Assembly: GCA_018825985.1 (NCBI GenBank) | Contig: JAHKAP010000018.1 | Location: forward strand, 4,134-68,133 | Direction: 5' to 3' | Source: Candidatus Omnitrophota bacterium | GTDB lineage: Bacteria; Omnitrophota; Gorgyraeia; Gygaellales; Profunditerraquicolaceae | Length of the DNA stretch: 64,000 bases | Part shown: piece by piece, positions 19,237-47,508 of the stretch | Position numbering within the stretch: the first letter of the stretch is position 1 | Layout: every line of letters begins with the position of its first letter | Notes under the pieces: model-generated | The model's database searches: none | What the model was told of the DNA's origin: nothing | The model's input: only the letters and a program-made list of their open reading frames with translations | Translations under genes and position numbers: made by a program

Positions 19237-19254
19237 ATACACATCCTTATAAAA

Positions 19255-19340
19255 GTAGTTAGTAGATAGTAGGTAGTATGTAGGGTTCAGTAAATTCTGA
19301 TCTTTCCCCTAATACCTACCTACTACATGCTACCTACTAC
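19255..19340 (-). repeat. TAG/GTAG-rich intercistronic palindromic element, copy A (ilvC stop to leuA start)
   Basis: Left arm GTAGTTAGTAGATAGTAGGTAGTATGTAGGG and right arm CCCCTAATACCTACCTACTACATGCTACCTACTAC. The ilvC TAG stop (19337..19339) lies inside the arm. Confidence 0.7.
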
Positions 19341-20329
19341 TTTTTCATCCAGGGCATCATCTCACGAAGCTGTTTCCCCACCTTTTCGATCAGATGCTCA
19401 TCGCCTTCTTTTAACATCCGGTTAAAATTCGGCCTGCCGTCTTCATTCTCTTTGATCCACTCTTTGGCGAACTTCCCTTTTTGGATCTCTTTTAAAATCT
19501 TCTTCATCTCTTTCCTGGTCTTTTCGGTAATTATCCTCTTGCCCCGGCTTAAATCCCCGTAACAAGCAGTATTGGAAACTCCCCGGCGCATCCCGGATAT
19601 ACCCTTTTCCTGGATCAAATCGGTAATTAATTTTAACTCATGTAATACTTCAAAATAGGCTATCTCTGGTTGATAACCAGCCTCAACCAAAGTATCAAAA
19701 CCAGCCTTAATCAGCTCGGTCACTCCGCCGCAAAGCACAGCCTGTTCTCCGAAAAGATCAGTTTCGGTTTCTTCGGTAAAAGTAGTTTCAATTACTCCGG
19801 CCTTGGTTGCGCCTATAGCTTTGGCATAAGCCAAACCAATCTGACGGGCCACTCCAGTGGCATCCTGAAAAACCGCTAATAAACAAGGAACACCCTTGCC
19901 CTCCTCAAACATCCTGCGGACTAACGCTCCCGGTCCTTTGGGCGCGACCATAAACACATCCACATTCTTAGGCGGCTTTATTTGTTTAAAACGGATATTA
20001 AAACCATGGGAAAAACAAAGGGCCTTCCCCTTTTTTAGATTCGGCTTGATGCTTTCATTATAAACCTTGGACTGAACATGATCCTGGGTTAATATCTGTA
20101 TAATATCTCCGGCCTTAGCAGCTTCTAAAGCTGGGACAGGGGTAAACCCGTCTTTTTTAGCCTGCTCAAAATTAACAGTCCCCTCCATTTCAGAAACCAC
20201 TACATGGCATCCGGAATCACGCAAACACAATGCCTGGCCCCGGCCCTGAATACCATAACCAATAATAGCGATAGTCTTATCTTTCAACAAACTCAGATCC
20301 GCATCCTGCTCATAATAAATTTTAATCAT
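19337..20329 (-). CDS. ilvC: Ketol-acid reductoisomerase (class I)
   Basis: [19 protein letters not shown]; 330 aa with typical KARI conservation. Confidence 0.95.
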
Positions 20330-20418
20330 TTTTTCCCCCCTGAACTCCTACTGTTTTAATTCAGCGAAACCCCGCCTTTTTGGTAAAATATGGTTTTTAT
20401 CGCGCCAAAAGGGCTAGG

Positions 20419-20892
20419 CTAATAAGCCATAACTATCCTGCCGCCCCGGATCAGTTCTTTTATCCCAAACTTAGTGAGCGCCTCCAATAATTGTTTTATC
20501 TGAGCCTGCTCGCCTACTACTTCTATTACCGCGGTATCGGCCTTATGGTAAACGGTCTTGGCTAAATATTTATTTAAGATATTTTCTAATCTGGTTTTAT
20601 CTTTAGACGAATAATTAACCTTAACTAAAACCAGCTCCCTGTCCACATGTTCTTTTTTGGTAAAATCAGTTACGGTAATCACATCAATAAGCCGATTGAG
20701 CTGTTTTTTAATCTGCTCCAAAATATTTTCATCTTTAGCCTCGACAACTATGGTCATCGCTGAAATTTCCGGATCTAGAGTCTCATTAACCGCCAAGGAA
20801 GCGATATTATAACCCCGGGCGCTGAATAAACCGGATATCCTGGCTAAAACACCAAATTTGTTCTCTACTAATACTGAAATCGTATGTCTCAT
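20419..20892 (-). CDS. ilvN: Acetolactate synthase small (regulatory) subunit
   Basis: ACT-domain N-terminus HTISVLVENKFGVLARISGLFSARGYNI. Confidence 0.9.
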   Translation of the reverse strand: MRHTISVLVENKFGVLARISGLFSARGYNIASLAVNETLDPEISAMTIVVEAKDENILEQIKKQLNRLIDVITVTDFTKKEHVDRELVLVKVNYSSKDKTRLENILNKYLAKTVYHKADTAVIEVVGEQAQIKQLLEALTKFGIKELIRGGRIVMAY

Positions 20893-20898
20893 ATTCTC

Positions 20899-22323
20899 CT
20901 ATACTAAGTTTATAAATATCTCGGTAGTCTTTGGGTCATAACGGATACCGCTGTATTTTTTTAATTCCTCTTTTGCCTCGCTAAAACTTAAACCTTTACG
21001 GTAAGGCCTGTCGGTGGTCATGGCGTCAAAAGAATCCGCGATAGAAAGGATCCTGGCGCCCATAGGTATCTCATCCCCCTTTAAGCCATCCGGGTAACCT
21101 GTGCCGTCAAGCGACTCATGGTGGTACCTGATTATACTGCACAGCCTTGAAAGAGACCTTATCGGCTTAACGATACCTTCGCCGATCACCGGATGCCCGC
21201 GCATTACCCGGGCCTCATCCTCATTTAAAAAAGTTGGTTTTCTTAAAATATCGTCACTTATCCCGATTTTACCTACATCATGAAGAAGGGCTGCGTCTTT
21301 TAAGGATTTGATAAAATCCTGGTCCAGCCCCAATTCTTTAGCGATCTTAACCGAATAGTCAGCCACCCTGTCCGAATGGCCGCGGCTATATAGATCACGG
21401 GCCTCAACTGCCATAGCTAAAGCGGAGATTGTCTCCAGATATGTCTTTTCGGCATCGATATTTAACCTTTCATTTTCCACCGCTACAGCTGTCTGGGTAG
21501 CTAAATTAGAGATAATTATTAATTCATCTTCCTGAAAATTACCCGGGATTATCTTACCCGCTACCGCCAAGACCCCAACGATTTTATCTTTATACAACAT
21601 TGGCGCGCACAACAAAGGCGGAGCAAAAGGATCTTCACCCGAACGTTCACCCGTTTTATTGACATCGGGAACCAACAATGGTTTTTTATTTTTCGCTGCC
21701 CATCCCGGGCCTTCTTCGCCTATTTTTAATCTTAAAGAGCTAAAGACACTGCCTATCCCGGCCGAAGCTTTAATATATAACTCCTGTTTTGCATCATCAA
21801 CAAGCATTAATGCTCCGGTCTTAGCGTCCAAGGCATTTGTGGTTACCTCAATGATCAATTCTAAAAAAGTATCGATGTTTTTAGAATTGGATATCCCGGC
21901 GGCAAGCTTGGTCAAGACATCCTGTATTGTCCGCTTTGATGCCTCCAGACGCTTAATATTCTCCTCCAGATTCTTGGTAATTTCATTAAAGGTTTTGGCT
22001 AACTGAGTTATTTCGCTTTCATCATCTTTAACCTCACCCAAAACAGAAATACCCCCCCCTAATGAACCCCTAGTTTTTCTGGACAATTCCTGGATCTTTT
22101 TTATAGAACTGCGCATACTAAAAAAACCGATCATAGAACCGATCCCGATAAGAAATATGATCCTTATTAATACTCCATGACTGATATTAATTGTATCCGA
22201 GTTATTGGACCGGATCAGTAAAAAAGTAACTACTAAAAAAGGTAAAATCGACATTACAAAGAACAATACCGAGAACTTTCGGATTATAGAAGAATCTCTT
22301 ATTGAAGTTAGTTTAAGCGCCAT
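20899..22323 (-). CDS. Membrane-anchored GAF plus HD-GYP signalling protein (putative c-di-GMP phosphodiesterase)
   Basis: N-terminal TM spans, a HAMP-like linker and a GAF-like region, then HSDRVADY...LHDVGKIGI...HHESLDGTGYPDGL (HD-GYP). Confidence 0.85.
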   Translation of the reverse strand: MALKLTSIRDSSIIRKFSVLFFVMSILPFLVVTFLLIRSNNSDTINISHGVLIRIIFLIGIGSMIGFFSMRSSIKKIQELSRKTRGSLGGGISVLGEVKDDESEITQLAKTFNEITKNLEENIKRLEASKRTIQDVLTKLAAGISNSKNIDTFLELIIEVTTNALDAKTGALMLVDDAKQELYIKASAGIGSVFSSLRLKIGEEGPGWAAKNKKPLLVPDVNKTGERSGEDPFAPPLLCAPMLYKDKIVGVLAVAGKIIPGNFQEDELIIISNLATQTAVAVENERLNIDAEKTYLETISALAMAVEARDLYSRGHSDRVADYSVKIAKELGLDQDFIKSLKDAALLHDVGKIGISDDILRKPTFLNEDEARVMRGHPVIGEGIVKPIRSLSRLCSIIRYHHESLDGTGYPDGLKGDEIPMGARILSIADSFDAMTTDRPYRKGLSFSEAKEELKKYSGIRYDPKTTEIFINLV

Positions 22324-22339
22324 ATTATTTATTAGAAGA

Positions 22340-24007
22340 CTAGGCTAATCCTTCGATCATCCTATTAATAGCTTCGCCTGCCGGAACCATCGGCCATACA
22401 TTTTCTTCCGGATCTACCGCGATATCCACAAAAACAACATTATCCGTATCAAAAGCCTTTATAATAGCCGCGCGAACCTGCTCTTTTTTATTCACCCGAA
22501 TACCCACCGCTCCATAGCTTTCCGCAAGTTTTACAAAATCCGGGCTATAGATAGGAGTGTGGGAATAACGCTTTTTATAAAACAGCTCCTGCCACTGCCT
22601 GACCATCCCTAAATAACCGTTGTTTAGAATAAACACCTTAACGTTTATCTTATTGGCCACGCAAGTCGCCAATTCCTGGATATTCATCTGGATCGAGCCG
22701 TCGCCGGCAATATCAATAACTTTTTTTTCCGGGCAGCCTATCTTCGCTCCTATTGCCGCCGGAAAACCAAAACCCATTGTTCCTAATCCTCCGGATGAGA
22801 TAAATGTCCGCGGATATATATAGGTAAACCACTGAGCAGCCCACATCTGGTTCTGGCCGACTTCAGTAGTGACGATTACGTCCCCTTTAGTAACATCATA
22901 GATCTGCTCAATAACATATTGAGGCTTGATCTTGCCATCTCCAGACTTATATTTTAAAGGATGCTTTTTCTTCCAGGAATCAACGGTCTTTAACCACTCT
23001 GAGGTATCCGGAGATTTTTTAATCTCTTCAATCAATTGCCCTAAAATATTTTTAGCATCACCCACTATCGGAATATCCACTTTAATATTCTTACTAATCG
23101 ATGTAGGATCAATATCAATGTGGATGACTTTTGCCGTTGGAGCAAAAGAATCGATCCTTCCGGTTACCCGGTCATCAAAACGCGCGCCCACAGCGATGAT
23201 CAAATCGGATTCAGTAGTCGCGTGGTTAGCATAAGCAGTGCCATGCATGCCCAACATACCTAAACATAAAGGATGAGTTCCCGGAAAACAGCCTAAACCC
23301 ATCAAGGTCATGGTTACAGGAGCGTTTATCTTCTCAGCCAGGACCTTTAATTCCTGGGCAGCACCGGACGTGATTACTCCTCCGCCGGCGTAGATTATCG
23401 GCTTTTTAGATTGGGATATCAATCTGGCTGATTTTTTAATCTGTCCGGGATGCCCGAAAAGAGTAGGTTTATATCCCCGGATATCCACTACTTCCGGCCA
23501 GACAAATTCAATATTCTGCATCTGGACATCCGATGGGATATCAATTAAGACCGGACCCGGCCTTCCGGTTGAGGCGATAAAAAAAGCCTCCCGAATTATC
23601 CTGGCTAGGTCTTTAGTGTCTTTGACTAAATAATTATGCTTAGTTATCGGCCGAGTGATACCTGTAACATCGGCTTCCTGAAAAGCGTCATTACCGATCA
23701 AAAAAGTCTTTACCTGGCCGGTAATTGCCACCATTGGGATGGAATCCATATAGGCATCCGCGATCCCCGTAGTAAGATTGGTTGCCCCCGGGCCTGAAGT
23801 AGCCAGGCAGACCCCCACCTTACCGGTTGCCCGAGCATAACCTTCGGCAGCATGGGCAGCGCCTTGTTCATGCCTGGTTAGTATAAGCTTTAAAGTTGAA
23901 TCGTAGAGCTTATCAAAAATAGGCAGAACCTGCCCGCCAGGGTAACCAAAGATATACTCTACGCCTTCACGCTTCAAACATTCTAATAATATTTCCGCAC
24001 CAGTCAT
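22340..24007 (-). CDS. ilvB: Acetolactate synthase large subunit
   Basis: ThDP enzyme: [12 protein letters not shown] and [17 protein letters not shown]...[12 protein letters not shown]. Confidence 0.95.
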
Positions 24008-25660
24008 TTAACTAACCACCGCTCCTTTATCCGCTGAAGAGACCATTTTGGAATAACGGGCCAGATACCCGGTCCTGATCTTGGGAGGAACCGGAATCCA
24101 TTTCTTAAATCTTTTTTCTATTTCCTGTTTGCTTAATTTAACCTCTAATTTTCTATTCGGTATATCTATATTGATTATATCATTATCTTTTAAAATCGCA
24201 ATTACACCCTTGTTTGCCGCCTCAGGAGAAACATGCCCGATACAAGGGCCTTTAGTCCCTCCGGAAAATCTTCCGTCAGTGATCAAGGCCACGGAATCAG
24301 CCAGGCCCATACCTACGATCGCCGCGGTAGGAGCCAGCATCTCGCGCATACCCGGACCGCCTGCCGGGCCTTCATAACGGATAACGATCACTTCTGCGCC
24401 CTTAATCTTTCCCCCCAGGATCGCCTGCATCGCTTCTTCTTCCCGGTTGAAAACTTTTGCCCTTCCACTGAATTTCATCATCTTGGAGTTTACCGCTGAC
24501 TGTTTGACTACCGCCCCATTCGGCGCCAAGTTCCCGAATAAAACAGCGATACCACCCTGTTCATGATAAGCCTTATTTAACGGCCGGATCACTTCTTCAT
24601 CAAAAATCTCAGCCTCATCAGCGATCTCAAATATCTTTTTACCGCTTAAAGTCAGGGTATTATTCAATCTGGATTTTAAACGCTTCAGTACTGCCGGGAT
24701 ACCTCCGGCAAATTCCACATCTTCCATAAAATGCGGACCAGCCGGCTCCAGATTAGTGATATGCGCAGTCTTCTTGCTGATATCATCAAAAACCTTAAGC
24801 CCCAATTTGATCTTAGCTTCATTAGCGATAGCCATGAGATGTAAAACCGTATTGCTGGAACCACCCAGCGCCATATCCACAGTAATAGCATTTTCCAAGG
24901 ATTGCTTATTGATAATATCCAGCGGTTTAATATCTTTCCGGACTAATTCTACTATCCGCTCTCCGCTAGCCTGGGCGATCCTGCGTTTGTTGGCTGACAC
25001 AGCCAGAGCAGTTGCGCAACCCGGCAATGACATGCCTAAAGTTTCAGTAAGACAGGCCATGGTATTAGCGGTATAAAGGCCCTGGCATGAACCTGCGCCA
25101 GGACAGGCCTGCTGTTCAATACACTCTAATTCTCCGGCTGAGATCTCGCCTTTTTTTGCCCGGCCTAAAGCTTCATAAGTATCATGAACAAAAGCTAATT
25201 TTCTAGTCTTATACCTTCCGGAAAGCATCGGCCCGGCAGTAACTATAATTGCCGGTATATTCAATCTGGATACGCCCATAAGCATGCCCGGAGTAATTTT
25301 ATCACAGTTAGTCAAGCAGATAATCCCATCCAATTGATGGGCATTACAAACAGTCTCTATAGTATCGGCAACGATCTCCCTTGAGGCTAAAGGATAACAC
25401 ATCCCGAGATGACCCATAGCAATACCATCACAAATACCCGGGACCCCGAAGAAAAATGGCACACCTGCGGCATAACAGATACCCCGCTCAATATAACGCT
25501 CGAGATCCCGCATCCCGATATGCCCGGGGATCAGATCAGTAAAAGATGTAGCCACGCCTATAAAAGGTTTATCAAAATCCCTTTTAGATAATCCCGTAGC
25601 GTAAAGAAGCGCCCGGTGAGGAACCCTCTCCAAACCTTTCTTGATCTTGTCTGATCTCAT
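24008..25660 (-). CDS. ilvD: Dihydroxy-acid dehydratase
   Basis: [29 protein letters not shown]. Start set to the ATG at 25660 (MRSDKIKKG) with GGAGG 8 nt upstream. Confidence 0.95.
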
Positions 25661-25682
25661 AATAGAACCTCCAAGCAACTTT

Positions 25683-25796
25683 AGTATTTAGTAGATAGTA
25701 GTTAGGTTTTAGGGAAAACCTTCACCCTATATCCTACCTACTGTCTTTGAATTTGCTTTTCCCTACCTACTATATACTACCTACTACATACTGCTT
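25683..25796 (-). repeat. TAG/GTAG-rich intercistronic palindromic element, copy B (fba stop to ilvD RBS)
   Basis: AGTATTTAGTAGATAGTAGTTAGGT...CCCTACCTACTATATACTACCTACTACATACTGCTTTTA. Both ends are near-identical to copy C. Confidence 0.75.
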
Positions 25797-27119
25797 TTAA
25801 TCAGCGCCTTCTCCGTCATGCACCACTTCGCTGTCTTGGCGCTTACGAATAATAACCCTTTTTAAAATCACGTATTTATCTATTAATTCCTTATTATTTA
25901 AATTATTCAACTGTTTAAACAGGAAATCAAACTTAGCCTCAATCTCCGCGGCAATGGCATTGCGCGTTTCAACAGGTAAAGACATAATCTCTTTTTTAAA
26001 AGGCCCTAATGCTTTTTTGCGGGTCTTATAGAAAAACTGTTCTTCGGTTTCGCCGGCCTTTGCCTCAGATGCGGCATTGACTTTCAACCATTCATAAATC
26101 TTAAGCTTCAAAGCGGCTGGAAAATGCTTGCTCTCGTAAATCATATTCTGGAATTCTGTTGCCAGATGAACCTCGGCGGCATCGCATTCCGGGAATTTAT
26201 GAAAAGCCTCGGCCGGAAGGGTTGATGCCCCGTGCTGAACAGCCCCGGATAAACCAAATTCTTTTCTGGAGATATTGGAGAGATTCTTTAAGGTATCAAA
26301 GTCCAGCTTTACCTGGGCAATTGAACCGTCAGGCAAAACCACCCCGCCATGAGAAGTCCCGGTCTGAATGGAAATCTTGCTTATCCCGGTTAACCCTTTG
26401 CGTAACTTTTCTTTATATCCGTTCATAAACGCCCTTAGATCTTCCGGCGTGGAATTTTGATGGCCGACTTCCCCGATCTCCCCGCCTACTGAAACAGTAA
26501 TTCCTTTAGGCTCGATCCTGCGTATAAACTGTGTTAACCTGGCGCAAACCTCATAATTTAACTGCTGTTGTTTTTTAATATCAGTCTTAGAAAGGTCCAC
26601 AACTGTTGAAGAATCAATATCAATATTATAAAATCCCGCGGATATCGCATCGGTTATCAGGGCCTTTAGCCCTTCCATCTCTTTATCCGGGTCTTCCTTG
26701 AATTTTTTAGCGTTAACCTGAAAATGGTCGCCCTGGATAAAGACAGGTCCTCTAAACCCCTCCTTTACTGCCGCGGCAACGATAACCGCAGAATATTCAA
26801 CCGGAGGCTGGTTAGTATAGCCCATCTCTGACTTAGCGATCTCAAAAATCACCGCGCCGCTATTATTCTTTTTTGCCGTCCTAAATAATGCCTTGGCCAG
26901 GTCATAAGTCATACTTCTTAAATTTATGGCCGGCACGGTAAAACCGCTAAAATCCCCCTTGCCCATAGCTATGTAGAAATCATGAATGCTTGAAGGGTAA
27001 ACCCCATTCTTATAACCCAAATCCAAAATCTTCTTGGCAATCTTTTTCTTGAGAGCTGTCCCATCAGCCATAATTAATTCCATTACAATCTTATCCATGT
27101 CCATCGGCCTTCTTCCCAT
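25797..27119 (-). CDS. fba: Class II fructose/ketose-bisphosphate aldolase (long form)
   Basis: FTVPAINLRS, FIQGDHFQV, IQTGTSHGG, VQHGASTLP. Confidence 0.8.
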   Translation of the reverse strand: MGRRPMDMDKIVMELIMADGTALKKKIAKKILDLGYKNGVYPSSIHDFYIAMGKGDFSGFTVPAINLRSMTYDLAKALFRTAKKNNSGAVIFEIAKSEMGYTNQPPVEYSAVIVAAAVKEGFRGPVFIQGDHFQVNAKKFKEDPDKEMEGLKALITDAISAGFYNIDIDSSTVVDLSKTDIKKQQQLNYEVCARLTQFIRRIEPKGITVSVGGEIGEVGHQNSTPEDLRAFMNGYKEKLRKGLTGISKISIQTGTSHGGVVLPDGSIAQVKLDFDTLKNLSNISRKEFGLSGAVQHGASTLPAEAFHKFPECDAAEVHLATEFQNMIYESKHFPAALKLKIYEWLKVNAASEAKAGETEEQFFYKTRKKALGPFKKEIMSLPVETRNAIAAEIEAKFDFLFKQLNNLNNKELIDKYVILKRVIIRKRQDSEVVHDGEGAD

Positions 27120-27164
27120 TTTAAACCATTCCTTTCCTTAAAGATTATTAATAATATTCTTTAA

Positions 27165-28130
27165 CTAAGTAAGTATTTTGATCAACTGATAAAAATTATC
27201 TGTCTCAAATTTCTTTTTACTAACGGCAAATTCTAAATCCACTATATTAATATCATCGGAGATAATACCTACTGCTTTCCCCTTTTCTCCTTTTATCAAT
27301 AACTCCACCGCCTTAGCTCCTAAACGGCTGGCCAGGATCCTATCCCGGGCAGTCGGTGTTCCCCCGCGCTGGGTATGACCCAAGATTACCACCCTGGTCT
27401 CTAAAGAAGTGCGGTCAGTGATCTGTTTCGCGATATCCTCAGCCTTAGCCTTTCCTTCAGCCACAACTATGATCCAGCTTATTTTACCCTTTAAGTTTCC
27501 TTCGACAATATCATGGCACATTATATTAAAATCAAATTTTCTTTCCGGGATTAAACAATCTTCCGTGCCACCGCCTAAAGCTGCCTGCAGGGCAATGAAA
27601 CCGCTATCCCTGCCCATAACCTCAACTACAAAGATACGCTCCATTGAAGTAGCGGTATCCCTTATTTTATCTATCGCCTCTAACGCTGTGTTTACCGCGG
27701 TATCCGAACCGATAGTAGAATCTGTCCCGTTGACATCATTATCGATTGTTCCCGGTACGCCTATACAAGATATTCCCCATTTTTTACCCAGGGCAATTCC
27801 GCCCCGATATGTCCCGTCTCCTCCGATTAAAACCAAACCATCGATATTATTCTTTTTTATCACTTCAACTGCCCTAGCTTGGCCGTCTTCAGTAAGAAAT
27901 TCCGGACAGCGAGCGGTTTTTAAAATAGTCCCGCCCCGGCTGATGATGTTGGATACAAAACGATGGTCGAGTAATTGCAATTCCTCATTAATCAACCCGG
28001 AATACCCCTTGATTATACCCATCACTTCAATTTTATAGTGCAGGGCATAACGGACCACCGACCGGATCGCTGCGTTCATTGCCGGCGCATCGCCACCTGA
28101 AGTCAACACCCCTATTCTTTTAATCACCAT
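27165..28130 (-). CDS. pfkA: 6-phosphofructokinase
   Basis: TSGGDAPAMNAAIR, IGGDGTYRG, PGTIDNDV, VEVMGRDSG, LGHTQRGG. Confidence 0.9.
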   Translation of the reverse strand: MVIKRIGVLTSGGDAPAMNAAIRSVVRYALHYKIEVMGIIKGYSGLINEELQLLDHRFVSNIISRGGTILKTARCPEFLTEDGQARAVEVIKKNNIDGLVLIGGDGTYRGGIALGKKWGISCIGVPGTIDNDVNGTDSTIGSDTAVNTALEAIDKIRDTATSMERIFVVEVMGRDSGFIALQAALGGGTEDCLIPERKFDFNIMCHDIVEGNLKGKISWIIVVAEGKAKAEDIAKQITDRTSLETRVVILGHTQRGGTPTARDRILASRLGAKAVELLIKGEKGKAVGIISDDINIVDLEFAVSKKKFETDNFYQLIKILT

Positions 28131-28139
28131 GATAAGTTC

Positions 28140-28261
28140 AGTATTTAGTAGATAGTAGTTAGGTATTAGGGAAAATCTACGCCCTAAGCTCTACCTGCTA
28201 TATACTTGCTACTGCCTTTGTTTTTCCCTGTCTACTACATACTACCTACTATATACTGCTT
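28140..28261 (-). repeat. TAG/GTAG-rich intercistronic palindromic element, copy C (ahcY stop to pfkA start)
   Basis: It shares its first 25 nt (AGTATTTAGTAGATAGTAGTTAGGT) and its last ~20 nt (ACTACCTACTAYATACTGCTTTTA) with copy B. Confidence 0.75.
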
Positions 28262-29518
28262 TTACGTTCCAATTTCCCAACTTGATAAATACTTCTTCTG
28301 CTGCGCAGTTAGAATATCTATCTTTATGCCCATAGATTTAAGCTTAAGATAAGCGATATTATTATCTATATCCTCGGGAACAGTATAGACATCTTTATTA
28401 AGCTTGCGAAAGCTATTCTTTATATACTCCGCGCTTAAAGCTTGATTAGCAAAAGACATATCCATAACCTGAGCCGGATGTCCCTCTGCGGCAGCAAGGT
28501 TAATCAACCGGCCTTCTCCCAATAAATAAACCCTGCGTCCATTCCTAAGCTTATACTCAACCACAAAATCGCGGATAGTTTTCTTAGACCGGGCAAGTTT
28601 TTCCAAAGACGGAATCTCTATCTCTACGTTAAAATGTCCGGAATTACAGACTATTGCCCCGTCCTTCATTATTATAAAATGTTCCTCACGGATCACATTA
28701 ATATCCCCGGTAACCGTTACAAATATATCTCCGATCCTGGCGGCGTCTTTTATAGGCATTACCTGAAATCCATCCATAACCGCTTCCAGGGCTTTTAAAG
28801 GAGAAATTTCGATTACATATACATTAGCTCCCATTCCCTTGGCTCTCATGGCCACTCCCCTGCCGCACCATCCATAACCGCAGACCACAAAATTTGAGCC
28901 GGCCACCAATTTATTGGTTGCCCGGATTATTCCGTCAATAGTAGATTGGCCCGTGCCATAACGATTATCAAAAAGATGCTTGGTCAAAGCGTCATTTACG
29001 GCGATTATCGGATAACGCAATTTACCCTCTTTAGCCAGGGCCTTTAACCGGATCACTCCGGTAGTGGTCTCTTCGGTTCCGCCGATAATATTGCTATGCA
29101 TTGATACCGGACGCTGATGGATAGTGCTGACTAAATCAGCTCCGTCATCCATTGTAATATCAGGTCTTAGTGCCAAAACTTCTTGCATATGCTTGTAATA
29201 AGTTTTTGTATCTTCACCCTTAACAGCGAATACCGGAATCTTCAAATTCTTAACTAAAGAAGCAGCCACATCATCCTGGGTAGATAAAGGATTGGAAGCG
29301 CAAACCACAACTTCAGCCCCGCCAGCCTTTAATACTTCCGCTAGAACCCCGGTTTCGGTAGTAACATGCAAACAGCAGGATATCTTTACTCCTTTTAAAG
29401 GTTTTCCTTTATGAAAACGCTCAAGCAAAAGCCTTAAAACCGGCATGTTATTTCTGGCCCACTCGATCCGGAGCGCGCCCTTTTTAGCTAATTTTATATC
29501 CTTGATATCATGTCGCAT
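28262..29518 (-). CDS. ahcY: Adenosylhomocysteinase
   Basis: 418 aa: [32 protein letters not shown]. Confidence 0.95.
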
Positions 29519-29534
29519 CCCATCTCCTATTTTT

Positions 29535-29596
29535 ATTAGGGACAGCGACTATTTTTTTAGAAAGTTGCTTTGGAAAAAATAGTCGCTGTCCCTAAT
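29535..29596. repeat. 23-bp perfect inverted repeat (GGGACAGCGACTATTTTT type) between metK and ahcY
   Basis: ATTAGGGACAGCGACTATTTTTT, a 16-nt loop, then AAAAAATAGTCGCTGTCCCTAAT. The left arm recurs at 38992..39011. Confidence 0.85.
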
Positions 29597-29605
29597 ATTC
29601 CAATA

Positions 29606-35636: not shown

Positions 35637-36197
35637 TTAAAATTCTGTTACTTCTTTATCTTTTGTTTTATGCATTTCGTCAACTTTAACCATATATTTA
35701 TCGACTAATTTCTGAAGTTCATCTAAGCCTTTAAATTTATCGTCTTCACTGACAATCTTGTCCTTTTCAAGTTTTTCTAAATGTTCCTTAGAATCTCTGC
35801 GGATAGTCCGAAGCGATACCCTGGCCTCTTCGGATATTTTATTTACCACTTTAGTAAGCTCCTGGCGCCTCTCTTTGGAGAGCGGAGGAACCGATAACCT
35901 GATTACTTTACCGTCATTATTAGGGGTAATCCCCAAATTTGACTTTTGTATCGCCTTTTCAATTTCAACGATCGCGGAAATATCCCAGGGCTGAATAGTT
36001 ATTAAATGAGAATCGGGTACGCTAATTGATGCCAAAGTTTTAAGTAAAGTAGGCGTGCCGTAATAATCAACATGCAGCCCTTCAACTAAGCCTGGATGGG
36101 CCCGGCCGGTCCGTATCTCGGAGAATTCCCGGCCCAAAAACTCGATGACCTTCTTCATCTTCTCATCAGTGCTATGCAGAATCTCTTTAACGCTCAT
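35637..36197 (-). CDS. frr: Ribosome recycling factor
   Basis: 186 aa, typical RRF sequence (IRTGRAHPGLVEGLHVDYYG). Confidence 0.95.
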   Translation of the reverse strand: MSVKEILHSTDEKMKKVIEFLGREFSEIRTGRAHPGLVEGLHVDYYGTPTLLKTLASISVPDSHLITIQPWDISAIVEIEKAIQKSNLGITPNNDGKVIRLSVPPLSKERRQELTKVVNKISEEARVSLRTIRRDSKEHLEKLEKDKIVSEDDKFKGLDELQKLVDKYMVKVDEMHKTKDKEVTEF

Positions 36198-36250
36198 CGC
36201 AATCTCCCTCCCTTAAAACTCAATCCACGATCCATGATCAACTATCCGTT

Positions 36251-38413: not shown

Positions 38414-38502
38414 ATTGAACTCCCCCTTTCAATGAATTGGCTAGATACTGGTTTCAAAAAGTACCTAATAACGGTTTAAATTACTTAACTAATAGACCTT
38501 TG

Positions 38503-38530
38503 AGTATAGCATATTTTCTGCCCCTTGCAA
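38503..38530 (-). promoter_or_regulatory. Candidate sigma70-type promoter for rpsB-tsf-pyrH-frr
   Basis: Minus strand reads TTGCAA-16 nt-TATACT, about 85 nt upstream of the rpsB start. Confidence 0.5.
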
Positions 38531-38571
38531 CTATTTTTTCAATTAAAATTGCTTAAAAAAATAACTTTAAC

Positions 38572-38648
38572 ACGGATTTGCGCTGATTTATTAACGGATT
38601 CCCACGGATTATCCGGCATATCCGTTATTTATATCCGTGCATATCCGC
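38572..38648. repeat. Cluster of seven WATCCG / CGGATW motifs (3 in one orientation, 4 in the other) between the divergent rpsB and rpmB promoters
   Basis: ACGGAT at 38572, 38594 and 38604; ATCCG at 38611, 38620, 38633 and 38643. The central pair forms CGGAT-T-ATCCG. Confidence 0.8.
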
Positions 38649-38687
38649 GCCAAATTGTACTTTTTAAGTATTCTCCAATTAAAAAAC

Positions 38688-38715
38688 TTGACAATACTTC
38701 GATTTAAAGTATACT
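38688..38715 (+). promoter_or_regulatory. Candidate sigma70-type promoter for rpmB
   Basis: TTGACA (38688..38693), a 16-nt spacer, then TATACT (38710..38715). GAGGTGG SD lies before the ATG at 38759. Confidence 0.55.
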
Positions 38716-38758
38716 TAACTATACTTTAATCCTAAAAAATCCCAAAAAGAGGTGGAAT

Positions 38759-38986
38759 ATGCTCAAAATTTGTATTATTTGCAAAAAAGGCGAAATGTCC
38801 GGTAAAAGCGTGGTGCGAAAAGGCCTTTTAAAGAAAAAAGGCGGCACAGGCTCTAAAATCGTCCGGGCTACTAAACGTAAATTCCTTCCTAATCTGCAGA
38901 AAATGCGAATCCTGATTAACGGGCATCCGCAAAGAGCTTATATCTGCACAAAATGCCTAAAAAAAGGCAATATCGTAAAAGCCTGA
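38759..38986 (+). CDS. rpmB: 50S ribosomal protein L28 (Zn-ribbon form)
   Basis: RKFLPNLQKMRI is the L28 signature; CxxC...CxxC pairs. It is the only plus-strand gene in the window. Confidence 0.85.
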   Translation: MLKICIICKKGEMSGKSVVRKGLLKKKGGTGSKIVRATKRKFLPNLQKMRILINGHPQRAYICTKCLKKGNIVKA

Positions 38987-38991
38987 TTAAA

Positions 38992-39011
38992 TAGGGACAG
39001 CGACTATTTTT
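38992..39011. repeat. Solo half-copy of the GGGACAGCGACTATTTTT repeat arm
   Basis: TAGGGACAGCGACTATTTTT is identical to 29537..29556. No full partner arm is nearby. Confidence 0.8.
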
Positions 39012-39019
39012 ACAAACTG

Positions 39020-39080
39020 AAATGGGGTCAGAATTATTTTTCTTTGTCTGCGCTCGAAAAAAATAATTCTGACCCCATTT
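39020..39080. terminator. Bidirectional terminator-like 22-bp hairpin between convergent rpmB and recJ
   Basis: AAATGGGGTCAGAATTATTTTT, a 17-nt loop, then AAAAATAATTCTGACCCCATTT. The arm sequence is related to the GGGACAG... repeat. Confidence 0.65.
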
Positions 39081-39102
39081 CCTTGATCAGAACCGTCCCC
39101 TT

Positions 39103-47416: not shown

Positions 47417-47500
47417 GGGACACCCCGCCAGCTAAAGCTGAGGGTGTCCCCCTTCCATCATCTTAGGGGACACCCTGCCGATTAGTCAGCGGGGTGTCCC
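47417..47500 (-). repeat. Two tandem GGGACACCC hairpin repeats between trpF and trpB
   Basis: GGGACACCC...GGGTGTCCC at 47417..47450 has a loop containing CAGCTAAAGCTG, nearly identical to 10762..10795. GGGGACACCC...GGGGTGTCCC lies at 47466..47500. Neither is followed by a U tract. Confidence 0.8.
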
Positions 47501-47508
47501 TATGGTTT

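Follow-up and report, generated by a model that had tools for sequence, protein, structure and literature searches.

The 23S rRNA intervening sequences (IVSs) of Coxiella burnetii and Leptospira carry an S23p open reading frame (ORF) and are regarded as selfish elements (PMC4990558). In Coxiella, the ORF lies in a loop closed by a 28-bp terminal stem, two to four tandem GACAGAT heptamers are present in strain-variable number, and RNase III cuts within the stem, as established in vitro and by rapid amplification of cDNA ends (PMC4990558). Here we describe three short hairpin repeats with heptamer arms, copies A, B and C, that lie between genes on a Candidatus Omnitrophota metagenome-assembled genome (MAG) contig; a stretch of 64,000 nt, hereafter the window, was analysed, and all coordinates refer to it. 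Besides the IVS, they call for comparison with GTAG repetitive extragenic palindromes (REPs), in which a single unpaired GTAG stands beside a palindrome of 20-40 nt with a 5-13 bp stem (PMC3733652; PMC3116915). These occur 3' of ORFs, between co-directional and convergent genes, with 'HH' dimers predominant (PMC3733652). Comparable too are the TAACTGA heptamer direct repeats of Beggiatoaceae, Cyanobacteria and Bacteroidetes, patchily distributed over several phyla, which put a stop in each of the three frames, lie nearly always between genes and touch or overlap the ends of ORFs and the start codons; one indirect repeat stands against 169 direct sets in a TAACTGA genome, and a role in translation, with candidate binders, has been proposed for those repeats that lie upstream of a start codon (PMC4679880). 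Heptanucleotides are the commonest long repeats of simple sequence (LSSR) in prokaryotes, and slippage has been proposed as their origin, according to Mrazek 2007 as cited in PMC4679880.

The three repeats are paralogues: hairpins with heptamer arms, anchored at stop codons. Between 15 and 33 kb of the window every gene lies on the minus strand, in the order metK, ahcY, pfkA, class-II aldolase (fba), ilvD, ilvB, a GAF-HD gene, ilvN, ilvC, leuA, aroE and prepilin peptidase, and the related repeats, read here on the mRNA (minus) strand, fill the intercistronic gaps ilvC-leuA (A), fba-ilvD (B) and ahcY-pfkA (C) (Table 1). An initial annotation of the sequence had proposed that a single family of palindromes fills these gaps, and that proposal is borne out. 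An nhmmer profile of the three copies matches these loci only in the 64 kb, each in gene orientation, and GTAGTAGGTAG, with at most one mismatch, occurs eight times in the window against 0.49 expected, all eight inside A, B or C. Copies B and C agree at 104 of 121 aligned positions (86%) and share the ends that had been reported for them, namely TAAAAGCAGTAT at the 5' end and an identical run of 25 nt at the 3' end; since the identity extends to non-repetitive loop sequence, they are paralogous copies and not independent simple repeats. The mRNA-strand sequence of copy A is AAAAAG-TAG-TAGGTAGCATGTAGTAGGTAGG...CCCTACATACTACCTACTATCTACTAACTACTTTT and that of copy B TAA-AAGCAGTATGTAGTAGGTAGTATATAGTAGGTAGGGAAAAG...TTTTCCCTAAAACCTAACTACTATCTACTAAATACT, from which copy C departs by a few changes. 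Each arm consists of three to four degenerate tandem 7-mers (TAGTAGG, TAGTATG, TAGCATG, or the complements of these), with a best autocorrelation lag of 7 (0.52-0.59); the arms enclose loops of 20-60 nt.

The elements were also thought to begin at the upstream stop codon, to carry TAG in all three frames and to end 10-25 nt short of the following start. The stop codon of ilvC is indeed the first TAG of copy A (19337-19339), AAGCAGTAT directly follows the TAA stops of fba (25797-25799) and ahcY (28262-28264), and TAG occurs in all three frames of the 5' arm of each copy. These stop positions are native, as they are conserved in four related genomes. The spacing at the other end is close to that described: the main hairpins end 8-22 nt upstream of the called start codons, with the ilvD start (first base 25660) 22 nt past the end of the copy B hairpin and GGAGG in between, and the pfkA ATG (first base 28130) 8 nt past the main hairpin of copy C; the minimum-energy fold of copy C has four extra outer pairs that reach to 1 nt before the pfkA start. 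Predicted RNA folds of A, B and C have energies of -39.0, -34.7 and -38.4 kcal/mol (z = -5.7, -4.0 and -3.8 against dinucleotide shuffles), with predicted stems of 34-44 pairs (34 in copy A) that are AU/GU-rich and have large loops. More than one fold is possible, as the annotation had it, because B and C carry a third, internal TAG segment, which in B could pair with the CTA arm in place of the 5' arm.

Table 1. Coordinates of the three window repeats and their parts.
Feature	Coordinates	Strand	Evidence
Copy A, ilvC to leuA gap	19243..19345	-	Predicted hairpin 19344..19251; nhmmer E = 7e-23
Copy A, 5' TAG arm (TAGTAGG/TAGCATG heptamers)	19309..19339	-	Array detection
Copy A, 3' CTA arm (holds CCTACATACTACCTACTA)	19256..19283	-	Array detection
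Copy B, fba to ilvD gap	25679..25800	-	Predicted hairpin 25792..25683; nhmmer E = 3e-36
Copy B, 5' TAG arm	25763..25786	-	Array detection
Copy B, internal third TAG-type segment CAGTAGGTAGGATATAGG	25725..25742	-	Unpaired in minimum-energy fold
Copy B, 3' CTA arm	25682..25712	-	Array detection
Copy C, ahcY to pfkA gap	28131..28266	-	Main hairpin 28258..28139; nhmmer E = 1e-35
Copy C, 5' TAG arm	28232..28251	-	Array detection
Copy C, internal TAG-type segment	28177..28200	-	Array detection
Copy C, 3' CTA arm	28146..28169	-	Array detection

Elsewhere, the same architecture and the same heptamer words frame genes of the PF05635 family, and decayed intermediates exist. Small ORFs between a TAG arm and a CTA arm belong to PF05635 in 8 of 10 cases (E about 1e-38) and match TIGR02436 as well; the former is the '23S rRNA intervening-sequence protein' (IVP), the latter the 'four helix bundle protein', and the family is weakly Avd-like. 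The fetched loci contain 18 PF05635 ORFs between TAG and CTA arms, and a PF05635 gene or pseudogene occupies 11 of the 15 loops of 250-600 nt in which the TAG arm comes first. Spacing within these cassettes is tight, the TAG arm ending about 20 nt or less from the ATG and the CTA arm starting about 20 nt or less past the stop. In one such locus from Patescibacteria (L287) the arms are made of the window's own heptamers, and an 18-mer of its 3' arm, CCTACATACTACCTACTA, is also present in copy A. The arrangement is, in short, stop / GTAGGTAGTATGTAGTAGGTAGG..ATG-IVP-TAA..CCTACATACTACCTACTACATACTA / ATG and, at greater length, ...TGA / GTAGGTAGTATGTAGTAGGTAGGCAAAAACT-ATG...TAA-AACTTTTGCCTACATACTACCTACTACATACTATAGCCT / ATG (bacA).

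To remove ascertainment bias, an independent sample was drawn by fetching loci through the PF05635 protein only, which gave 27 non-redundant genes. Inverted flanking arms (z > 4) accompany 20 of the 27. These arms are sharply periodic at lag 7 (0.67, compared with about 0.25), which is the best lag in 16 of 19, and they measure about 30 nt, or some 4-5 units, whatever the sequence of the unit; the G-rich arm lies 5' in 18 and 3' in two. The heptamer changes from locus to locus (GGAGAGT, CCAGTTG, GGTAAGA, TAGGGTG, AGAAGGC, TCGGCGT, CGTTACA, TAGTCTG and CAACGTT) and differs at almost every one, while the proteins are about 35-45% identical across loci. Most PF05635 cassettes examined sit in operon gaps, outside rRNA. 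Further examples were fetched by protein identity, L287 among them. One from Bipolaricaulota (L288) adjoins a pyruvate:ferredoxin oxidoreductase subunit gene; another, on a plasmid of Picosynechococcus sp. PCC 7003 (L292), has GGAGATA arms and parts cmr2 from cmr3, with 35-36 nt in the gaps; a third, on pANA02 of Anabaena sp. 90 (L293), lies between cas6 and cas4 with GGTGACA arms. The last two split CRISPR-Cas operons, and their cultured hosts, which provide clean examples, are suited to experiments. Two cassettes with different arm units, one of the TAG type and one of a CCGTAAA/ACGGTTT type, share locus L190 (319-672 and 1990-2355), which is useful for asking whether protein and heptamer co-vary. 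At two further loci, L014:2205-2685 from Omnitrophota and L231:9247-9712, an FmdE-domain ORF of 141-143 aa stands between a TAG arm and a CTA arm; either the loop can also accommodate a gene outside PF05635, or the bracketing of the gene by two single arrays is fortuitous.

In L134 (two cases) and L175, TAG arms enclose PF05635 genes with frameshifts or internal deletions. Locus L154 goes further: a 156-nt TAG hairpin, flush between a stop codon and AAGGAG-ATG, keeps only 22 IVP codons, KVKIEDFRDLIVWQKSHQLALEI, which match the N-terminus of the protein (22.8 bits with a profile built here). The proteins flanking it cluster at >=90% with Candidatus Omnitrophota proteins, and the contig is of that phylum. 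Full cassette and empty hairpin are thereby joined by a series of decay within the window's own phylum.

We favour, tentatively and with somewhat less than even confidence, the reading that A, B and C are gene-less, IVS-like miniatures of PF05635 cassettes, transcribed together with the operon and probably subject to RNase III cleavage. The class to which they would belong is one of heptamer-armed hairpins, whose full-length members have a PF05635/TIGR02436 gene in the loop and which lie flush in operon gaps or inside rRNA genes. As in the S23p/PF05635 IVS, a long stem is formed from terminal inverted repeats (34-44 predicted pairs here, about 28 bp in Coxiella), the arms hold tandem heptamers, whose copy number is variable in Coxiella, and TAG-armed hairpins of the window type were also found inside a 16S gene and between a tRNA and a 23S gene. 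Unlike the full-length members with their four-helix-bundle ORF, the window copies have no ORF in the loop and can hence only be gene-less derivatives; they lie between protein genes in mRNA and not inside rRNA, and their heptamers are TAG-based and supply stop codons. RNase III cleavage is known from Coxiella; in the window copies it is putative.

By analogy with the Coxiella 23S IVS, the life of such a miniature may be pictured as follows. A, B and C would be transcribed as part of the metK...leuA gene string, and the RNA of each element would fold back on itself as an imperfect stem, some 25-30 bp long. Cutting of this stem, probably by RNase III, would separate the upstream and downstream cistrons and leave half-stems at the new ends. 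On either strand the leading arm carries TAG in every frame, so that an element can abut the end of an ORF in either orientation without extending the protein. In evolution the arms gain or lose heptamers as whole units and remain complementary to each other.

Several observations weigh against this proposal. The similarity of the arms is of low complexity, so the homology of the window copies to the cassettes is inferred from design. Inverted ends are present in A, B and C, but no direct (target-site) duplication was seen flanking any of them. An hmmsearch found no PF05635 gene in the window and no intact one in the other fetched Omnitrophota loci, about 135 kb in total, and the intact TAG-armed cassettes with taxon checked are all from Patescibacteria. 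A Pfam scan of 20 array-flanked ORFs found no RAYT (Y1) or other transposase. Unrelated sequences fill the same gaps in species with 96% identical IlvC. Lastly, among 38 hairpins between co-directional genes the sense strand folds better in 13 and the antisense strand in 25 (p = 0.12).

Miniature mobile elements of other kinds offer a further point of reference. The Correia (NEMIS) elements of Neisseria are 100-150 nt long, with inverted ends, lie between genes and in operon mRNAs, and have stems that are RNase III targets; the window copies are alike in size class, inverted ends and intercistronic placement. The Correia elements terminate in unique inverted repeats of 26 bp and have a TA target duplication, and we know of no heptamer periodicity or stop-codon anchoring in them. 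As to miniature transposable elements with inverted repeats (MITEs) in general, the sole 'full-length' partner found for the present hairpins encodes PF05635, which to our knowledge is not a known transposase.

The heptamer hairpins are widespread. An exact 23-mer of the 3' arm recurs in more than 120 stretches among the matches listed (from contigs of one genome per species), which come from at least 12 phyla, including Bacteroidota, Ignavibacteriota, Omnitrophota, Patescibacteria, Cyanobacteria, Verrucomicrobiota, Elusimicrobiota, Chloroflexota, Planctomycetota, Nitrospirota and Proteobacteria, and one archaeon. Most of these listed matches are pure (CTAACTA/CTATCTA)n arrays, and the 23-mer is therefore a common building block and does not mark homologous copies of A, B and C. 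A 20-mer of the 5' arm likewise recurs in more than 120 metagenome stretches among the matches listed, and many of its loci (for example L139, L224, L228, L239, L213 and L164) have the window layout of stop, TAGTAGGTAGTATGTAGTAGGTAGGG, short loop, CCCTA.AACCTACATACTAACTACT, 5-25 nt and ATG. By crude ORF calls, 118 of 125 arrays (about 94%) are intergenic. In a search of all fetched loci for the AAGCAGTAT 5' end together with the TTTTCCCTAA core, no further copies of the B/C subtype were found outside the same species. Contigs of a Tannerella sp. MAG (JAISEZ01; L010, L026, L099, L101 and L123, for example) carry a multicopy, non-coding element of about 150 nt with TAG-heptamer inverted ends, many copies of which lie at contig ends, suggesting that such repeats break assemblies.

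The order of the arms is strikingly uniform. In a non-redundant count, the TAG arm precedes the CTA arm in 76 hairpins with loops below 250 nt and follows it in three, and for loops of 250-600 nt the numbers are 15 and one; as the structure is palindromic, this polarity is the same on both strands. A supply of stop codons was considered as the general cause of the polarity and rejected, since stop-free heptamers (GGAGAGT, AGAAGGC and others) keep the G-rich-first order. Positional bias at stop codons, which the initial annotation had set as a check on the family, extends across many phyla: 32 of 37 hairpins start between -17 and +14 nt from the upstream stop, and in 10 the first TAG is the stop codon itself. 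The CTA arm frequently ends 4-26 nt upstream of the next start codon, and single CTA-sense arrays sit just 5' of start codons. The arms had also to be distinguished from low-complexity drift. Because their variable copy number makes alignments arbitrary, cognate and non-cognate arms were compared in place of alignment covariation. Cognate arms are the more complementary (18.8 against 14.7; z = 8.4), a value reached in none of 2000 permutations, and pairing is thus specifically kept. Gene-less TAG/CTA hairpins are moreover found inserted inside a 16S rRNA gene (L216, 16S at 696-2215) and in a tRNA-23S spacer (L155, between a tRNA at 1234-1306 and the start of the 23S gene), and the hairpins are therefore not tied to translation.

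Such arrays might feasibly arise in place, without any element, if heptamer repeats grew by slippage from the stop-codon region and template switching (quasi-palindrome correction) turned them into hairpins that are neutral filler. In its favour, heptanucleotides are, per Mrazek 2007 as cited in PMC4679880, the commonest repeats of their kind, with slippage as the proposed cause; orthologous elements differ by whole heptamers in both arms in step (L139/L239 and L242/L287), and at one orthologous site a full hairpin in one species (L213) corresponds in a relative (L237) to a partnerless TAG arm followed by a ribosome-binding site and ATG. Fast turnover between sister species and the lack of a strand-specific RNA signature in the 38 hairpins fit as well. 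We nevertheless hold this explanation to be unlikely. The identity of B and C over 121 nt at unrelated loci, loop included, needs copying between sites; the 76-to-3 polarity and the flush placement at stops need selection or a mechanism; and the consistent presence of one particular gene family in the loop is left unexplained.

A second alternative is suggested by the GTAGs themselves, of which the window arms are full: the repeats could be of REP/REPIN type, head-to-head GTAG-tagged palindromes mobilised by a RAYT (Y1) transposase. They resemble REPs in being short intergenic palindromes 3' of ORFs, the placement between co-directional genes included, with dispersed copies (B and C are dispersed paralogues, and the window holds three copies in 64 kb; REP families are species-specific), and their outward GTAG polarity is like that of the predominant 'HH' dimers (PMC3733652). 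The build is different. In A, B and C a GTAG recurs every 7 nt and is base-paired, so that the stem itself is made of GTAG-bearing heptamers, whereas the REP tag is single and unpaired and its stem is 5-13 bp. The same design occurs, furthermore, with heptamers that have no GTAG, and the ORFs flanked by arrays that were scanned are ordinary genes or PF05635, never a Y1 transposase; the gene associated with heptamer hairpins encodes a four-helix-bundle protein. A REP origin is, on this evidence, very unlikely.

Four related Omnitrophota (L247-L250) with the same gene order and IlvC 87-96% identical show how quickly the gaps change. A, B and C are absent from the same gaps in all four, and other hairpins are there: ATGGTCT/ATAGTCN heptamers at three sites in L249, elsewhere TAGGGTT, GGTGCAG and TATCAGG, and otherwise unrelated palindromes. 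Of 39 gaps of 55-220 nt across the clade, 30 have folds with z < -2.5. Some hairpin or other is thus usual in these gaps, but its identity turns over faster than the species diverge. Unrelated hairpins at the same sites indicate fast turnover, and the particular element is dispensable there. The suggestion of the initial annotation that the elements are regulator or small RNA (sRNA) binding sites fares poorly, because elements that are not kept at these sites in sister species argue against a conserved site-specific regulator or sRNA site.

That a hairpin occupies the same gaps in every species, with unrelated sequences, could also mean that structure as such is selected, the hairpins being intercistronic RNA structures (3' stabilisers, translational insulators or couplers, or partial terminators) to which the IVP link is incidental. 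Copy A, like an intrinsic terminator, has a hairpin right past the stop codon flanked by an A-run and a U-run, and the 3' arms, ending 8-22 nt before start codons, leave the ribosome-binding region free. However, a UUUU run is present in A only, with no U tract in B or C, and a terminator and promoter scan (simple terminator model) found nothing at A, B or C. An intrinsic terminator has a short GC-rich stem, a loop of 3-8 nt and a U tract, whereas the window stems are far longer, AU/GU-rich and large-looped, and they lie inside an apparently co-transcribed gene string. A search of Rfam gave no gathering-level match at the elements, the sole match at E <= 1 being a plant miRNA hairpin (E = 0.76). 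The sense strand has no excess stability, so nothing points to selection on mRNA structure; for the same reason (13 against 25, p = 0.12) G·U pairs were no longer considered a mark of the transcribed strand. Hairpins of the same kind in rRNA genes and beside tRNAs, where translation is irrelevant, speak against it too. We judge selection of this kind to be quite unlikely.

A more speculative thought, to which we give still less credence than to any of the foregoing, is that the arrays are binding sites of a repeat-reading protein (a pentameric PF05635 protein, S1, CsrA or a cold-shock protein) that controls translation of the flanking genes. Arms of about 4-5 units whatever the unit, five chains in the crystal of a solved PF05635 relative (2GSC), single CTA-sense arrays just upstream of start codons, and the binders proposed for TAACTGA repeats in that position (PMC4679880) are all in keeping with it. 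Yet nearly every locus has a heptamer of its own, whereas the protein keeps about 35-45% identity, and the window has no PF05635 gene.

The repeats can also be set beside the heptamer arrays already described. The window arms fall within the definition of degenerate 7-nt arrays that are intergenic with TAG in all frames, and the commonest unit here, CTAACTA (permuted, TAACTAC), lies two positions from TAACTGA. The window elements are inverted pairs of fixed polarity, with B and C paralogous, whereas TAACTGA repeats are mostly direct arrays, and the link to PF05635 was not made in that work (PMC4679880). The initial annotation recognised no described class in these repeats, which remains apt insofar as no Rfam family covers them and is too strong insofar as their design and heptamer words are common to PF05635 cassettes and overlap with known heptamer repeats (PMC4679880). 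In a literature search from which subscription journals were largely missing, the Coxiella paper alone joins IVS and heptamer repeats, and a fuller description may exist; a search by sequence words of the elements returned primers only. The element is a further form of IVS-like and REP-like palindromic repeat made of heptamer simple repeats, and its broader regularities and gene link lift it above an ordinary repeat family.

It is tempting to go further and to regard the heptamer hairpins and the PF05635 protein as one widespread, so far undescribed genetic system, present in Patescibacteria, Cyanobacteria, Bacteroidota, Omnitrophota, Bipolaricaulota and others. Its cassette would insert precisely into the space from a stop codon to the following start codon, or into rRNA helices, a pentameric protein would read 4-5 heptamers of its own arms, gene-less hairpins such as A, B and C would be its trans targets or sites at which operon mRNAs are re-cut, and the polarity would reflect the mechanism of insertion or recognition. 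As a whole, we consider this scheme a distant prospect and rather improbable.

Other features of the window and its relatives were recorded alongside. The GAF-HD (HD-GYP-like) gene at 20899-22323, between ilvB and ilvN, is absent from the same operon in L247-L250. The metK-ahcY gap holds, at 29519-29605, a near-perfect palindrome of a different repeat family, TAGGGACAGCGACTATTTTTT...AAAAAATAGTCGCTGTCCCTA (-36 kcal/mol, z = -9.5), a half copy of which lies within 38414-39102; related GGGACGGTTCT and GGGGTCAGA palindromes occur in gaps of the same four sister genomes. At 10676-10815, stop-rich heptamers, TAATAGA TAATAGG ATAATAGG, directly follow the stop of a 1661-aa ORF and are succeeded by a terminator-like palindrome with a T run, GGGACACCCT...AGGGTGTCCC; a second occurrence of this palindrome is at 47424-47508. 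The gap 5' of the ORF at 35637-36197 is filled, at 36198-36250, by four direct heptamers (GATAGTT GATCATG GATCGTG GATTGAG), a partnerless array of another flavour.

In practical terms, heptamer arms break assemblies, many matches lying at contig ends, and can mislead gene callers at ORF ends. Any mechanism put forward for these hairpins must explain the 7-base units and their number of about 4-5 per arm, the G-rich arm coming first on both strands, and the flush placement at stops. If the reading of A, B and C as gene-less miniatures of PF05635 cassettes is true, it would tie together heptamer simple repeats, stop-rich intergenic repeats and the orphan 'four helix bundle / S23' family, which have so far been reported separately. 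A large part of the hairpin filler that lies, unexplained, between the genes of uncultured phyla would then gain a testable mechanism, namely RNase III cutting of operon mRNAs at IVS-like stems.

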